64,000 bases of DNA, from the NCBI GenBank assembly GCA_963693055.1, contig OY843751.1, forward strand, positions 32,001-96,000, in the 5' to 3' direction. The position numbers and the translations under genes were made by a program. This DNA comes from a bacterium. GTDB lineage: Bacteria > Zhuqueibacterota > Zhuqueibacteria > Residuimicrobiales > Krinioviventaceae. The notes beneath the pieces were generated by a model. That model had not been told where the DNA came from. It saw only the letters and a program-made list of their open reading frames with translations, and searched no databases. This document shows positions 24,345-32,984 of this stretch, in pieces; position 1 is the first letter of the stretch, and each line of letters begins with the position of its first letter.

Positions 24345-24372
24345 TATCCGGGAGGTGTGAGCCTCCCGGATA
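24345..24372 (-). terminator. Hairpin, probably the original terminator of the M4 peptidase gene
   Basis: Perfect 11-bp stem TATCCGGGAGG/CCTCCCGGATA; AATTTT follows on the minus strand. Confidence 0.6.
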
Positions 24373-24449
24373 TTGTATATTACTTAAAGTTTAGTGCATA
24401 TGACCATAGGAATCATTGTTTTAATAAAAACAGAAATAAGGAGATTCTT

Positions 24450-25289
24450 ATGGCAGATGTTAAAAATAATTATGGTTTAAAAAGACTCGAATCCAAGACA
24501 GCTAAAAACGCTATTGTCCAAAAACTGTCTCAGGATTTCAATTTGACTCCTATTATTGCCGAAGCTTACTATCAACAATTTGACCAATACTTTCAGGAAC
24601 ATTCCAACATTTCATTATCAGGAGGTGAAGTCGCTTATGAAGCTGTTGCCGCTGAAGAACCAGCCGGCAAACATATCAGATTAACCCGAAAGCTTACGGT
24701 CCGTCTCAAACTAATTGACTTTAATACAGATCTGCAAGCCCTGGCTAATTATGGCCTTGCCGGACTTAGACGACACCGGATCGCCCGTCTGACTCGACAA
24801 GCCTATGATCAGGGTGCTTTACTCAGCTATGAAGACCTGGCAATGCTTTTAACCACCAGTCCGGCCACTGTTAAACGTGACATTTATCATCTCCGTCATC
24901 ACGGTATGTTTATCATGACACGAGGTATGAAACATGACATGGGTCCCGGACTGTCTCATAAAACCATCATTATTGATCTGTATCTTAAAGGTTATACCTT
25001 TTCAGAAATAGAACAAAAAACCAATCATTCTGAAACCAGCATCAAACGTTACCTCGCTGACTTTATGCAGATCGCCCTTTTATACAAGGAAAATTTCTCT
25101 CCGAACCAGATTCGACTCATTGCAAAGAAATCCGACCGCCTGGTGCGCGAGTATATCCAACTCTACCAAACCTATCTTCAACAAAACAATACGCGATTAA
25201 ACGATCTGTTATCTCCTGCGGAACCTGGTGGCGACGCGAAAAAAAAATCCATTCCTCAACATCTATCAGGAGGCAAAGAAAATGAGTAA
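24450..25289 (+). CDS. DUF1670-like protein A
   Basis: AAGGAG RBS before ATG 24450; AYDQGALLSYEDLA, TRG..HDMGPGLSHK, HSETSIKRY. Confidence 0.8.
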   Translation: MADVKNNYGLKRLESKTAKNAIVQKLSQDFNLTPIIAEAYYQQFDQYFQEHSNISLSGGEVAYEAVAAEEPAGKHIRLTRKLTVRLKLIDFNTDLQALANYGLAGLRRHRIARLTRQAYDQGALLSYEDLAMLLTTSPATVKRDIYHLRHHGMFIMTRGMKHDMGPGLSHKTIIIDLYLKGYTFSEIEQKTNHSETSIKRYLADFMQIALLYKENFSPNQIRLIAKKSDRLVREYIQLYQTYLQQNNTRLNDLLSPAEPGGDAKKKSIPQHLSGGKENE

Positions 25290-26106
25290 ACCTTTGACTA
25301 AAGAACAAATTCAACTCAAAAAAATGAGACGACTTAAAGATAAAGATCTCAAGCAGTTACTACTGTACAACTTTTTGAATAGCTATGGCTATGACAAAGG
25401 AGCCATCACTGCCAATGCCATCATTGATGATATCCTTAAAATCATTGATGACTATTTCCTTGTCTCCTCTATTGATGATGACTTGCACCATATTCACTAT
25501 GGGCAACTCGTCTGGATGGCTGTTCCTGTCGATGAATACCCCAAACGCGGAAAAAGTATTGCCGCTACCCGAATGAAACCCGTTGTCCTCTCTTTCATTA
25601 CTGATCAGGATACTTCTCATATCGCGCATGGTTTTGATTCCAAAACTTTAAGGAAAAGACGCCTCAAACGTTGGGTTGATGAAGCTTTTGATCAAGGTGC
25701 TCTGCTTACTCAACTTGACCTGGCTATGTTACTCGGTGTCTGTGATGCCGTTGTCAGTAAATATGTAAATGAAATCCAAAAAGAAGGGCATCTCTTACCA
25801 ACGCGTGGCAACATCCATGATCTTTCCGGCGCTATTACTCATAAACGCGAAATTATCACTCTGTATCTTGAGGGATATCTCACTCCCGAAATCGCTTTGA
25901 AAACCAAACACAGCAACGAAGCGGTTGACAGGTATATCAAAGATTACCATCGTGTTGAATTACTTTGGAAGCATGACATTAAAAACCTTGATCAAATCAG
26001 CCAGCTGGCAAGACTTTCCAAACGTGTCATACAACAATATGTTGATCTTTTGCCTGATAAAATTAAAAATCAAAGGAGTCAGTTGAATCTTTCAAAGAAC
26101 AATTAG
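25282..26106 (+). CDS. DUF1670-like protein B
   Basis: AGGAGG RBS; ATGAGTAA overlap with gene A; AFDQGALLTQLDLA, PTRGNIHDL...THK, HSNEAVDRY. Confidence 0.8.
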   Translation: MSKPLTKEQIQLKKMRRLKDKDLKQLLLYNFLNSYGYDKGAITANAIIDDILKIIDDYFLVSSIDDDLHHIHYGQLVWMAVPVDEYPKRGKSIAATRMKPVVLSFITDQDTSHIAHGFDSKTLRKRRLKRWVDEAFDQGALLTQLDLAMLLGVCDAVVSKYVNEIQKEGHLLPTRGNIHDLSGAITHKREIITLYLEGYLTPEIALKTKHSNEAVDRYIKDYHRVELLWKHDIKNLDQISQLARLSKRVIQQYVDLLPDKIKNQRSQLNLSKNN

Positions 26107-26231
26107 TTGCTTTTATATTTCCCTTTTATTACTTTCAGAATGACAGATCACCAAATTTATTAATGATCTGACGCTCCGTTGTATTTTTAGGGGGTTTTAT
26201 AAATTTCTTTTTCTCCTCTGGTCATATGATA

Positions 26232-29200
26232 CTATTTTAATAATAACATTTTTTGTGTTTCAGTACCCATTGGAGTTGTTAAGCGATAGTAATAAATGCC
26301 GCTTGGTAAATCCTGACCGTTAAATTTGATTTGATGCGATCCCGCGGTATAAAATCCATCTGCCACCGACATGACATTTCTACCCAGAACATTATAAACA
26401 TCCAAACGCACATTCATGTTCTCAGGCAGATCAAAACGTATGGTTGTTTCCGGATTAAAGGGATTGGGATAATTCTGATGCAATGTTAATGCGGTAGGTA
26501 TTTTAATATCATTCTCTTCTACTGCAGTTTCGGGACGAGTACCTCGTGTTACCCATAATGGATAAATTGCACCGGTCAAAAACTGAAAATCATCACCTGC
26601 ACCGGTTATACCATCAGTAAGCAAGCTGGCTACAAATACACCATAATTATTTCCATCGGTATATTCGTAAATTACTGCCGAGTCATCTGAAGAAAAATCA
26701 GGTCTAGAGATCGCGTAACCATTTCTTGTGATCACACCAACATCACCCGTCTCCAGGTTGGCGCCATAAGCGGTAACCTCTCCGTTTGCGTCTACAAAAT
26801 CAAATGCCATAATATAATCATTGTTGGATGCCAGAACGGGATTGCCCAGGTTCACACCAATATCCTGTGGAGGAAAAGCACGGATTACTGTGCCGTCTGC
26901 AATACGTAAAAAGTTGATATCCCAATAATCCAGGGTGTCACCGGTTGCGGTAGCCGCTATATTATATGCATCATAAACCAGATACTGACTGTCAAGGGTC
27001 CAGTCCATTGCATCGGCATACAATACCGTAGAGGATTGTGCGCCTTCGGTATAGGTTTGCGCGTAAAGCGGATACTGGTAAACATTGTCTGTATTGACCA
27101 TGTCAAACAGATAGATCAGGCCATCCGCAACGTTTGAAGTTGCTGCAATATAGTTACCATTGGGTGAGTATGCCAGGTTCCAAAAGGTTCCTGAATCGTC
27201 CAACTGCTGTTCCGCACTGCCATCAATAGCTACGATTCTGGGATTGTAATCATAATCCACAAACAATACAAATTCACCATCGTCTGTTATTGAAGGTTTG
27301 TTCAGCACGGGAGAAGCAGAAATCATTTCAATGGTTTCCGCGTCTAGACTAATGCGATAGAGTGCACGGGTCCCGGAATCTACAGCCAGGATCCAATCAA
27401 TGCCTTGTACCTGAGGTTCAATATCGGGTAATGTAGAGCCTTCACCATCCAAAATCCCTACAGTATCAAACGCATTTTGAACCGCCTGATATTCTGTTGA
27501 ATTTTCTCCATAGAGATCGGAAGCTGATTTTAAAATTGCAATTCTGGCGTCAATGAATTGTGAACTGCGAGTCAGGTAAACTGAAAGTGCACGGTAATAA
27601 ATTTTTTCTGCTTTTTCAATGCCGATATTCAGGGCAACTTGATAAAAAGCCCTGTTGGGTATACCACTGTTCACGTGAACACCACCATTGTCGCCATCTT
27701 CAGTATTGGGGAGATTTTGATATTGATTCATATGTCCTGGCTGTTGGCCTCCGCCTACATTGGGGCCATCCGGTTGGATCATATCGCGAAGTGCGTCATT
27801 GGCAATAGAGGGGGTTGTTACATCTTCGCCCACCAACCAGTCGCCGTTTGCGCCTTCATGGTAAAATTCTGCTGCAACGCCAAAAACATCGGCAAAGGAT
27901 TCATTCAAAGCACCTGACTGTTCTTCATAGATCAGGTTTGCTGTATGTTCAATAACACCGTGGCTCATTTCATGAGCGGTTACATCCAACGCACCGGCAA
28001 GATCGCTGAATTGTTGACTGTCGCCATTGCCAAACACCATAAACTGGCCATTCCAGAAAGCATTGTTGTAATTATTATCAAAGTTGACCACAATGTACAT
28101 GGTGCCGCCTTTACCGTCAATGCTGTTACGGTTGTGGATATTGCGATAATAATCATAAACCACACCGCCATTTGCAATTGCACTGATAGCATTGGGCACG
28201 CTCCATGAATTTGCATTGGTTGATGTGTTGTAATACAGTTGGCTGCCATCTCCGTTTTGAGCGTCAAGCACAACAATACCGCCTTCCACGTTGTCTGGGA
28301 GTTGAGATTGCCCTGCGTTGTACATGGGCTTGGAGGTATCGATCAAATAGTGATCACTACCGATTTGATATGCGCCAAAATTTCGGGTATTACCTTGCAG
28401 ATCCATACCACTTGCGTTTACTGCGCCATCATAACAGATGCGGTTAATTTTCTTTAATACATTTCCAGAATGGGCGTCAATTACAATATCCCAGTTTTCG
28501 GCCAGTGTTGGTTTAACGTTTACAATATAAGTCAGGGGGAATTCGTCCTGCATGGGATAAATTACCAGTCTGCTTTGTACCGGAACAGAGTCAGTATCTT
28601 TTAATCCCAGGTATTGTATTGCCTGGATCTCTGCATTACGAGCAGTAACGGAAGGTTGAATATCAAGAGATTTGGGCAAGGGTGTTGTGCGTCCGTTTAT
28701 ACCTACCAGTTTGTTATCTTTATCAAAATGGTAATAAAGGTCACGACCATATACCGGTACATTTGCAAAAGATTGATGCATACGTACATGGGTCATGCCC
28801 AGCGCGTCGGTTTGTTGTTTGACAAAAACCAGCTTGTCGTCCTGGTTTTCAAGACCCAGCAATCGTTTTGCCCTGGGAGCAAAAGCGTTAAGAGATTGGT
28901 TGATGGTGTTACCTGACATTTCATCAGATAACAGATTTTCCGCTTCGATAAATATGGGACTGCTGCCGTCCTGTGACCATTCAATCTGAATGTTACGGTT
29001 CGGGTCTCTTATGAGTTCAATCAATGCCTGTTTTTGGGCAGCGGGTAATTGATAATTGATTGTGTTTTTTTGACGTTTAGCCGTTTTGGGGGCGTTTCTA
29101 AACTGACTGATTTTTTCGCTGATTGTTTTTAGTTTTGCCTGTTCGATACCGATTGTTTTGTCGTTAGCAACCGGACGGGTGTTTTTTTTATCCGTTAATG

Positions 29201-30626: not shown

Positions 30627-32984
30627 TTAGCGAAGCAAAGTACATTTTTTAATTAAAGTATTACTGTTTGTTGCGAGGCGTATAAAATAGATACCGGAGG
30701 GATGGGCTGCGGCTTGCCATATCAATTCATAATTGCCTGCGGTTTGGGTGCCACTAAACAAATGATCAATCCGTTGACCCGTAATATTATAGATTTCAAT
30801 GTTGACACGGGAAGGTTTTTCGAGTTGATAGGCTATTGTGGTATTATTATTAAAAGGATTGGGGTAATTCTGAACCAAACGGGTAGTTTTGGGTGTTTTC
30901 CCGGTTTTAATACCTGATATGGTTTGCGGCATGGCCTTTAACGTGTTGAATATTTGCAGTTTTCCACTACCCCAGGCATTGTTAGGTGTTGAGCCGGTGA
31001 GTTCATCCTGCAAGGCGCCTTGTGCCAGCAGAGATCTGATTTGGACGACAGAGAGTGTCGAATCGATTTGCAGCATTAGTGCAATAGCTCCTGCTGCATG
31101 CGGACCGGAAAAACTGGTGCCTTCAACGCTTCTGTAGCCTCCGCTGAATTGTGGATAGCGGGTGTTGACGTCGGGAGTAAAGATCAGCTTGCCCGGGGCG
31201 GTAATATCTACACATTCCATACCATCGATTCTTGGCCCAATACCACTAAAGGTTGACAACTCGCCGGCAGGCTGATTGGTGGTCCGGATGTTAAAAGAGC
31301 CAACAGTCACCGCGCTGTCTGCTGTGGCAGGTAGTGTGACTGTGGCATTTTTTGTTGCATATGCATTGAAAAAAGCGCCATGTTCCCAGCCAAAGCGGGG
31401 ATCATAAGCATAACCATCCAAATGTCTTGTGGTGTTGGAAGGATTTTTTATGGTTATAGTCCAGTCACTTCCCACACGGTTGAGTCTGTACAGGACAATA
31501 TCGTATCGGCCTGTACCGCGCTCAGACTGCTGATGGGTGGTCCATATGTTAAAGAGCATGGAAGGAGTGATCTCTGAGGTCGCATCGAGTTTGAAATACT
31601 GTCCATCAGGAGACAGTAAACTGAAATCAAACAGGGAATCCTGATCTGTGAACAGAAATGACAAGAAAAATGGCGTACCGTTATTGTCCTGAATGATGGG
31701 CCAGGTTACACTAAAGGATATGGAATTGTTTGGCGGGATGTCCGCTTCCATGTGAACATCTGCCAGGTTCATATTGCCGGAGGGTATTACCGGAATGACA
31801 CCCCTGGCCGCAAGCGAATCCATCATGATCTCTTCATGAGATGACCCGTCCAGATATTCCTGCGAGTACCAGCCTTGTTCATACGTAACCAGATTTACAT
31901 CTGCTTCCGCCAGATACTCGAGGGTGCCGTAAACCAGGTCTGCATCGGGTGCTATGCCGGTTAGCGCGTTTACACCCGGCCAGCCTCCGGCAAGAATACC
32001 GCCAACGGCAGTACCATGTGAATTGATGGTGTTTAGCTCTATCAGGTCCACACCGCGTTCAAGTATTCTGTAAACAGGATTAAAGTTTTCGTCCAAGCCC
32101 ATATATTCACGGATGGCCTTGATTTTTGAAGAGCTTAATTGTACCAGCGGTTCATCACTGTTTAATCGATTGTTTTTGTTAGAGTCAATACATATAAACA
32201 AGGGTTCACCATAGGCCGGATCGGTTTCTGTAAATCCTGCGGATGTACCGTAATCCCGTATCCCATTGCTGTTGCTGTCAATAAACAGCCAGTCATATTG
32301 AGGTTCGTACGCGTCTTGTGTTTTTTCAAACAGTTCCCAGTAATCCAGAACGGGAGCATTGATGTAATGCAGTATTTCATCCGCATCAATTGTTCCGTTG
32401 TCATCCAGATCAATGCCGTCGGTACCACCGTCAAATTGTCCGTTTTGATTGACATCGGTCCAATCCAGGGTGTCGCCATCTGCGCGAAAAAACAGGGGAT
32501 GGAATATATCCGGGGGATCATCTGCAACGCCAATGGTAATACCTTTACCGGTGATTGGGTTTAAATTGCTATCGTATTGTACCCAGCACTGGTCCGCCTG
32601 TATGAGAGCCGCGCTTTTATTTAGACATTTATGACGGTCCTCTTGCCCTGCATACTCGATGGAGAGGATGTTTTCATCCTTTTGTAAAGCAGCAAGCAGA
32701 TCAACAGGAGTATAAGCTTTATAGATACCACCCAAATGCAGGGGGGACTGGTTTATCTTTTCAAAAAATACACCCCGGCTTTCCCATTGCTGCACAAAAT
32801 CGGCAGGTACATTGGAGCGCGTGCGGATGGAAATGGCGATTTTGTCCTGGTCCACTTTTTGAAGAGATGCTTGGGTATTGTCAGATGCCCATAACAGATA
32901 CTGCAGCCGGGTGTCCAGCTTTTGCGTACCTGCAAAAAGTGAATGAGAAAAGATGAGAAATATGTATAAATATAATTTATTAAT
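30627..32984 (-). CDS. Secreted S8 subtilisin-like serine peptidase with C-terminal sorting domain; start uncertain (ATT 32984 or GTG 32855)
   Basis: GVADD, HGTAVGG, GTSFSGP triad; DxNxNG repeats; QNYPNPFN; in-frame signal-like segment upstream of the GTG. Confidence 0.88.
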   Translation of the reverse strand: MNKLYLYIFLIFSHSLFAGTQKLDTRLQYLLWASDNTQASLQKVDQDKIAISIRTRSNVPADFVQQWESRGVFFEKINQSPLHLGGIYKAYTPVDLLAALQKDENILSIEYAGQEDRHKCLNKSAALIQADQCWVQYDSNLNPITGKGITIGVADDPPDIFHPLFFRADGDTLDWTDVNQNGQFDGGTDGIDLDDNGTIDADEILHYINAPVLDYWELFEKTQDAYEPQYDWLFIDSNSNGIRDYGTSAGFTETDPAYGEPLFICIDSNKNNRLNSDEPLVQLSSSKIKAIREYMGLDENFNPVYRILERGVDLIELNTINSHGTAVGGILAGGWPGVNALTGIAPDADLVYGTLEYLAEADVNLVTYEQGWYSQEYLDGSSHEEIMMDSLAARGVIPVIPSGNMNLADVHMEADIPPNNSISFSVTWPIIQDNNGTPFFLSFLFTDQDSLFDFSLLSPDGQYFKLDATSEITPSMLFNIWTTHQQSERGTGRYDIVLYRLNRVGSDWTITIKNPSNTTRHLDGYAYDPRFGWEHGAFFNAYATKNATVTLPATADSAVTVGSFNIRTTNQPAGELSTFSGIGPRIDGMECVDITAPGKLIFTPDVNTRYPQFSGGYRSVEGTSFSGPHAAGAIALMLQIDSTLSVVQIRSLLAQGALQDELTGSTPNNAWGSGKLQIFNTLKAMPQTISGIKTGKTPKTTRLVQNYPNPFNNNTTIAYQLEKPSRVNIEIYNITGQRIDHLFSGTQTAGNYELIWQAAAHPSGIYFIRLATNSNTLIKKCTLLR

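Follow-up and report, generated by a model that had tools for sequence, protein, structure and literature searches.

The 64,000-nucleotide stretch analysed here (positions 32,001 to 96,000 of the forward strand of contig OY843751.1, assembly GCA_963693055.1, a member of the Krinioviventaceae; hereafter the window) carries two overlapping genes of the family DUF1670 (PF07900), to which Pfam assigns no function. They lie within an insertion sequence, designated E1, which occupies the last codon of a peptidase gene, and their products, A and B, are discussed here as candidate subunits of its recombinase. The parts of the element are listed with window coordinates; the domain limits of the proteins are those of predicted structures, and E2 is a sister element described below.

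24384 to 26237, forward strand: insertion sequence E1, counted with the 2-bp core of each end; adds 1852 bp net
24386 to 24392, forward strand: 7-nt extension outside the left inverted repeat, constant among copies of one genome; 6 nt in E2
24393 to 24411, forward strand: left subterminal inverted repeat; shares 14 of its 19 bases with the right repeat, the inner 15 nt being 93% complementary; conserved across phyla
24450 to 25289, forward strand: open reading frame (ORF) A (P0001), 279 amino acids, DUF1670; N-terminal helices and beta hairpin, winged helix-turn-helix (HTH) at about residues 102–165, HTH2 at 170–213, HTH3 at 218–244
25282 to 26106, forward strand: ORF B (P0002), 274 amino acids, DUF1670; 8-nt overlap with the end of A; architecture as in A
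26107 to 26213, forward strand: non-coding region at the right, containing a small hairpin and differing widely in length and sequence between relatives
26214 to 26232, forward strand: right subterminal inverted repeat; its outermost base is the G of the new TAG stop codon

Both proteins scored far above the curated Pfam cut-off of 25 for DUF1670 (198.8 and 210.8 bits, E values of 1e-58 and 2e-62) and are 32% identical to each other. E1 contains no other ORF of note (none over 89 amino acids on the reverse strand), and a promoter scan remained at chance level (9 versus 6.0 +/- 2.7). The two genes are under purifying selection, with ratios of non-synonymous to synonymous substitution (dN/dS) of 0.05–0.15 in nine of 13 pairs and saturation in the remaining four. 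The inverted repeats are subterminal, 7 nt from one end and 3 nt from the other in E1 and 6 and 3 nt in E2, and the right non-coding end measures 129 nt in E1 and 16–149 nt in elements that have both ORFs intact. Nine consecutive A residues (25239–25247) stand shortly before the end of gene A, in a part where the reading frame of B is open as well; slippage at this run could yield an A-B fusion. Just beyond the left end, a terminator-like two-way hairpin at 24345–24372 originally stood directly behind the stop codon of the target gene.

That E1 is a mobile element is practically certain. Its source genome (G000), a single contig with a completeness of 100%, harbours six copies whose 1832-bp interior is identical in all six and whose flanks are unrelated. 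At the window site, the flanks are joined by a single core and no element is found in a genome of the same genus (G001), which also carries empty alleles at two further sites; a fourth site had no clean empty allele. As judged by these identical copies and empty sites, E1 was active recently. The source genome contains 13 DUF1670 pairs in total: six copies of E1, six of E2 (G000:C1:987149-989034 and five more) and one of E3 (G000:C1:2174028-2175913), the latter 92% identical to E2. Proteins of E2 and E3 are about 24–31% identical to those of E1; compared with E1, these elements have other repeats, share the core and the target class, and carry their genes in the opposite orientation relative to the target. 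Insertions on the leading strand (three of six for E1, six of seven for E2 and E3, against a background of 117 of 183) were uninformative.

The target side of the insertion comprises the following features.

24381 to 24385, reverse strand: target-side core AAGTA, i.e. the original Lys codon and the start of the target gene's stop codon, moved to the far end; the last three bases are target-derived
26233 to 26237, reverse strand: core AAATA on the target-gene side, consisting of the 2-bp core (26237-26236) and the fixed 3-nt extension ATA of the element; rebuilds the Lys codon and the stop codon
26232 to 29270, reverse strand: target gene encoding an M4 (thermolysin-type) peptidase with a C-terminal secretion-tail domain (TIGR04183, E value 4e-11; PF18962, PF01447, PF02868)

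Insertion into the last codon of the M4 peptidase gene leaves the encoded protein intact. In the source genome, 11 of 13 insertions hit the Lys-stop of a gene whose end resembles a secretion tail, a class scored by profile for the window target (TIGR04183/PF18962) and judged by motif for the others; the genome holds about 183 such gene ends versus 40,757 AAATA sites. Junctions were compared for 62 distinct events (50 E1-type and 12 E2-type), restricted to loci where both ends were found by pattern. On the gene side, the core ends in ATA in all 62 events; on the far side, its last three bases vary in 20, and a far-side variant is carried by the empty allele at an E2 site. Hence, ATA is borne by the element, and the Lys codon and the stop codon are rebuilt upon insertion. 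The first two core bases are AA on both sides in 58 events, with AG/AG, CA/AA, AA/TG and AG/CG occurring once each, a pattern which places the crossover within 1–2 bp. The AA/TG junction contradicts a 1-bp duplication, and AG/CG requires a carried-over base if a 2-bp heteroduplex overlap is assumed, which leaves neither model preferred. There is no fixed target duplication, and 1–2 bp are common to the element junction and the target. A target duplication of 5 bp was also considered and rejected, as the 62 junctions and the empty allele reveal the apparent repeat to be partly element-borne. Elements may also lie close together: one E1 copy is inserted exactly inside the far-side core of an E2 copy (G000:C1:509732), and another is located about 80 bp from an E2 copy (G000:C1:1348179-1348258).

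As A and B are the sole genes of a recently active insertion sequence, they very likely form a two-subunit recombinase, and the claim to this effect in a preliminary description of this DNA is supported by the present results. Pairing of DUF1670 genes is the rule among relatives, and natural A-B fusions also occur. In a quick tree of 23 of 33 pairs and seven fused proteins, the 30 upstream and the 30 downstream units fell on opposite sides of one branch with a Shimodaira-Hasegawa-like approximate likelihood ratio test (SH-aLRT) support of 99. According to this tree, A and B have formed distinct lineages since ancient times, as would be expected of two specialised subunits. We consider it probable that the pair is the element's own enzyme. 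No IS110/IS1111 recombinase was detected in the source genome, either as a PF01548 match or by tblastn with two IS110 proteins, and end motifs in this genome are confined to DUF1670 elements and short orphan ends. The joint of a circular form was not found in contigs of three runs, all from one sample that is probably the source of the window itself. The predicted circle-junction motif had no viral match and matched three metagenome stretches, none of them beside DUF1670 genes and one resembling a chance match. A full junction of right end, core and left end, followed by an inverted left end, was observed in two near-identical loci (L136:2480-2560 and L137:2501-2560), in a long contig with no DUF1670 gene nearby.

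The preliminary description had drawn attention to a string shared by the C-termini of both proteins, TRG-x2-HD-x5-(S/T)HK-x2-II-x-LYL-x-GY-x3-EI-x2-KT-x-HS, and to a following RY. The string is present in A and B as described, and the absence of a clean HxxR was likewise borne out, with no HxxR in either protein. The spacer before RY had been miscounted as six residues: HSETSIKRY and HSNEAVDRY both read HS-x5-RY, so that the distance from His to Tyr is 8. Conservation was determined for 98 sequences, namely the two queries and 96 of the best 150 representatives at 50% identity (those of 240–305 amino acids); being the top matches of the pair's own profile, the set is biased towards the pair. 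In the numbering of A, the conserved residues are R113 (96 sequences), R158 (96), D163 (86), H170 (95), K171 (85), H193 (94), R200 (83), Y201 (95) and Y235 (93), and Q121 is kept in at least 95% of sequences. The motif is conserved well beyond chance, yet unevenly: the His of 'HD' (H162) is poorly kept (16 of 33 A-type and 24 of 33 B-type proteins). Across 33 intact pairs, both subunits always contain D163, H170 and Y201, and H193 is present in 65 of 66 units, whereas R158 is replaced by K or T in ten of 33 B proteins and H162 varies. The C-terminal tyrosine, as expected of a tyrosine recombinase, is thus nearly invariant (95 of 98 sequences, 33 of 33 A and 33 of 33 B). The residues singled out by this comparison, whose role is proposed from their conservation, are located as follows.

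24936 to 25052, forward strand: candidate active-site tetrad of A, with D163 at 24936, H170 at 24957, H193 at 25026 and Y201 at 25050; present in 33 of 33 A-type proteins (H193 in 32 of 33)
25819 to 25935, forward strand: candidate active-site tetrad of B, with D180 at 25819, H187 at 25840, H210 at 25909 and Y218 at 25933; present in 33 of 33 B-type proteins

Fused relatives provided a contrast between intact and degenerate units. Among 28 intact units, D163, H170, H193 and Y201 are each present in all 28, with lower counts for Y235 (19), R200 (15) and K171 (13). In 18 degenerate extra units, D163, H170 and H193 are missing throughout and Y201 is left in three; R113 (18) and G159 (17) are still kept. 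Position 193 is mostly hydrophobic in these units, as in an ordinary HTH turn. At position 201, the 98 single units contain Tyr in 95 cases, Cys in one and gaps in two, and never Phe or Trp; degenerate units accept W, I, L and C. This contrast suggests that the arginines are structural or DNA-binding residues and that the Asp-His-His-Tyr set looks functional. No invariant Ser was found in DUF1670 (98 sequences and the fused units), a search that included no profile comparison for serine recombinases. Fused forms with an extra degenerate unit include P0125, P0126, P0128 and P0130 (930–950 amino acids) as well as P0165 and other proteins of 500–660 amino acids. Where three units are present, K171 is missing from the A-like one and R158 from the B-like one; that these losses complement each other hints at composite sites.

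The AlphaFold monomer models of the two proteins, with predicted local distance difference test (pLDDT) values of 83.5 and 89.2 and predicted template modelling (pTM) scores of 0.59 and 0.55, both start with N-terminal helices and a beta hairpin, followed by a winged HTH and a further two HTH units. The preliminary description had allowed that the conserved segment might simply be an HTH, and had named a fold of HTH modules as one half of a result that would refute its reading; the models agree with this half. The best structural matches had Z scores of 6.4 and 6.6 and root-mean-square deviations (rmsd) of 1.7–1.8 over 56 residues. At E <= 0.001, no PDB match was obtained for the model of B and no viral-library match for that of A, and a wide fold search returned no chain at Z >= 8. 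Tyrosine recombinases, protelomerases and topoisomerases IB were absent from the best 50 matches listed per model; because the domains of the monomer models are loosely placed, this absence still leaves room for these folds. A sequence search of solved structures returned a designed CAP repeat and weak HTH matches only, PHROGs and NCBIfam likewise gave weak HTH matches only, and a Pfam scan of 119 members yielded DUF1670 and HTH families among the best 25 of 54 matches.

We tentatively propose, at slightly less than even confidence, that A and B constitute a heteromeric Asp-His-His-Tyr transesterase built on an HTH scaffold and unrelated to the catalytic domain of Xer proteins and integrases. 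A and B would bind both repeats and the target as a heteromer via their HTH domains, and the ends would be joined into a circle in which the repeats are 12 bp apart (7 + 2 + 3). This circle would then be inserted at the AA core. A transient protein-DNA link may form on Y201 of A and Y218 of B, with D163, H170 and H193 (D180, H187 and H210 in B) possibly acting as metal ligands or acid-base groups. Provided that the pair is the element's own enzyme, we moderately favour the tyrosine as the nucleophile. Such a chemistry would be closer in logic to that of HUH enzymes than to the cationic RKHRH pocket. Several observations weigh against this proposal. Both models show HTH modules of the DNA-binding type, and their best structural matches are regulators, e.g. 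NiaR. The pTM scores reach just 0.55–0.59, and a spatial clustering of the four residues is hypothetical. Y201 lies where HTH recognition helices usually have an aromatic residue, and Y235, at the equivalent position of the next HTH repeat, is nearly as conserved (93 versus 95 of 98). Alignment of the degenerate units is difficult, so that their losses appear larger than they are. In addition, integrases of the XerC/D type and others, one resolvase and Y1 matches are found in the host, and could in principle be borrowed.

Some of these observations are shared by other explanations. The pair might be the element's own enzyme and yet act without covalent tyrosine, an Asp-His-His-bound metal activating water or a DNA 3'-OH in a DDE-like chemistry within a new fold and the tyrosine being an HTH core residue. 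D163, H170 and H193 are indeed as conserved as the tyrosine and are gone in all degenerate units, where it is left in three of 18, and Y235 is found at the same HTH position in 93 of 98 sequences. On the other hand, neither Phe nor Trp replaces Y201 in any of the 98 single or 28 intact fused units, so the hydroxyl group seems to matter, and insertion without a fixed duplication would better fit an energy-conserving exchange; we therefore regard the metal-only mechanism as unlikely, if still a serious candidate. It appears less probable again that A and B merely serve in targeting and synapsis, as do TnsD and Xer-activating factors, while a recruited host nuclease, topoisomerase or XerCD performs the chemistry. 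Models composed of HTH modules only, and the presence of XerC/D-type genes in all 31 genomes sampled, agree with such a division of labour. The family, however, spans many bacterial phyla and archaea, in which host partners differ greatly, the polar Asp-His-His-Tyr set is kept specifically in intact units, and ends and targets do not resemble dif sites when compared by eye with the dif consensus.

A very divergent pair of tyrosine recombinases with the Xer/Int fold, in which R113, R158, H170/K171 and H193 would assist the nucleophile Y201 in the manner of XerC/D, is the explanation closest to the preliminary description, and we consider it very improbable. Tyrosine recombinases use an overlap of 6–8 bp between partner sites, or a variable coupling sequence of this size, and some of them need just 2–3 bp of homology. 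No shared or variable coupling segment of 6–8 bp was present at the 62 junctions, a test that does not bear on the enzymes content with 2–3 bp, whose existence speaks for this explanation. The order R...R...HK...H...Y is conserved, and two specialised paralogs are kept together (support of 99), so that this aspect of the suggested XerC/D-like pair holds, whereas kinship with Xer/Int is unsupported. According to the accessible text of PMC8138268, the family is defined by a catalytic domain with an RKHRH pentad and a Tyr, and some recombinases shift pentad residues. Neither A nor B has the pentad, with HK in place of HxxR. The His-to-Tyr spacing, previously given as the same as in Xer/Int, is 8 in A and B; 31 integrase loci yielded 25 proteins of the XerC/D type, and in every one of these it is 9. 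HHalign comparison of DUF1670 profiles (from 119 and 123 sequences) with integrase alignments, whose profiles are shallow (effective number of sequences, Neff, of 3–4.4), gave probabilities of 0.5–1.5% versus 99.8% for the positive control, and the sole alignment placed HS..SV.RY..DF on the N-terminal core-binding helix of Xer instead of the catalytic box. R113 is retained in all 18 degenerate units, and many intact units of the B type have K, T, A or V in place of R158. Mimicry of, or descent from, the Xer/Int catalytic box is accordingly not supported. We find it at least as improbable that E1 belongs to the IS1111 type and depends on a DEDD recombinase of IS110/IS1111 acting in trans, or on guidance by a right-end RNA, the DUF1670 genes being passengers or regulators. 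The extensions of 7 and 3 nt or 6 and 3 nt are those given for IS1111, together with the absence of added bases, in the accessible text of PMC11187229, and a structured RNA-like motif is found in the right end of 17 related loci. However, PF01548 is absent from G000, G001 and G063 and present in two of five genomes, tblastn with the two IS110 proteins gave zero matches in G000, and the RNA-like motif was not found there. Moreover, a relative present in four copies in G062 has just 68–69 nt of non-coding DNA per end, and the right end is reduced to 16 and 30 nt in two relatives present once, all at the same kind of target; these stretches are too short for a typical guide RNA.

The RNA-like motif itself spans about 60 nt right after gene B (L057:2980-3057, L054:1770-1847 and 15 more) and shows compensatory change in seven of 16 predicted pairs (16 aligned sequences); Rfam returned no match for the one locus scanned (L055). 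DUF1670 was detected in 16 of 61 relatives, where pairs predominate, and, in a wider set from the phylum, in 25 of 113 genomes; these counts, from samples of non-independent kin, include the source genome and some weak partial matches. Three of five further genomes are multi-copy, with 14 (G061), 14 (G062) and 26 (G063) matches. Named loci belong to KSB1, Calditrichota, Marinimicrobia, Ignavibacteria/Bacteroidetes, Cloacimonadota, Poribacteria and Zixibacteria, and archaeal clusters exist; across several phyla, the element ends are conserved together with the genes. Collections of plasmids, phages and viral contigs contained no relatives of the DUF1670 pair. An Atlas search returned DUF1670 clusters only and, when these were excluded, nothing above 0.79. 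Ends without genes occur in the source genome at G000:C1:1730448, 5975649, 3844072, 5684746, 4718446 and 333440, five of them at secretion-tail-like stop codons; older insertions have probably left these orphan ends behind as scars. This genome contains some 60 additional repeats of 0.75–1.6 kb, which are probably other insertion sequences. One related element (L070) has a direct repeat of about 30 bp on its flanks and does not lie at a tail gene, reflecting either an aberrant insertion or an assembly error.

To our knowledge, prokaryotic insertion sequences employ DDE, HUH, serine, tyrosine or DEDD/serine enzymes. The sole genes of E1 fail the sequence tests for tyrosine, DDE, HUH and DEDD enzymes, which points to a chemistry of DNA breakage and joining, or to a fold, of which the searched literature has no description. 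A literature search, outside whose scope lay most subscription journals, ISfinder and supplements, returned no paper on DUF1670/PF07900 or on an E1-type element; PMC13107129, as far as its accessible text goes, concerns an unrelated family. We are evenly divided on the wider view that DUF1670 represents a new recombinase class, that is, a tandem-HTH heteromer in which a DNA-reading module was turned into an Asp-His-His-Tyr centre, with IS1111-like ends acquired by convergence in the absence of a DEDD enzyme or guide RNA, in a widespread bacterial and archaeal family of insertion sequences with scarless insertion at the last codon of secreted-protein genes. In any case, a Pfam family with no assigned function is tied to a defined mobile element, and four residues per subunit are singled out. 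If the proposal is true, the two small genes, together with a pair of 20-bp ends and a short target, would make up a compact (under 2 kb), oriented and gene-sparing integration system.

Comparison with known systems reveals partial similarities to several of them. DDE insertion sequences, which combine an RNase H-type sheet and DDE triad with terminal repeats and a fixed duplication, differ from E1, whose predicted proteins contain just a two- to three-strand hairpin, whose repeats are subterminal and which generates no fixed duplication. IS200/IS605 elements with HUH (Y1) enzymes are small and use a short AT-rich target without duplication, as does E1, for which His, His, an acidic residue and Tyr are likewise proposed; in contrast, DUF1670 has no conserved His-hydrophobic-His (HxH) column, HHalign gave 0.4–0.6% with 12 Y1 proteins, and the ends of E1 form an inverted-repeat pair with no strand bias seen (three leading, three lagging). 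The central domain resembles winged-HTH regulators (NiaR, DeoR/Crp type) and the winged helix of topoisomerase VI-A (1d3y), with Z scores of 5.4–6.6 and rmsd values of 1.7–2.7 over 55–62 residues, but these generic matches are tied with dozens of regulators, and in DUF1670 the conserved Tyr is part of the following HTH, not of the winged one. With XerC/XerD and the RIT elements, as far as the accessible texts describe them (PMC8138268, PMC5737581), the pair shares paralogous subunits, a near-invariant C-terminal His and Tyr, and short units without duplication. It differs from these and other tyrosine recombinases in lacking RKHRH or HxxR, in its spacing of 8, in the absence of profile similarity to the catalytic domain and in sharing 1–2 bp with the target. 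The IS1111 group of the IS110 family, as described in the accessible text of PMC11187229, is similar in the extensions (7/3 in E1 and 6/3 in E2) around a 2-bp core and in oriented, site-specific insertion without added bases. Unlike this group, the element has no DEDD/RuvC recombinase and carries two HTH-only genes instead of one transposase, its long non-coding region is not constant, and the genes of E2 are reversed relative to the short and long extensions. A and B are full members of Pfam DUF1670, and in contrast to that entry, the family is here tied to a defined mobile element.

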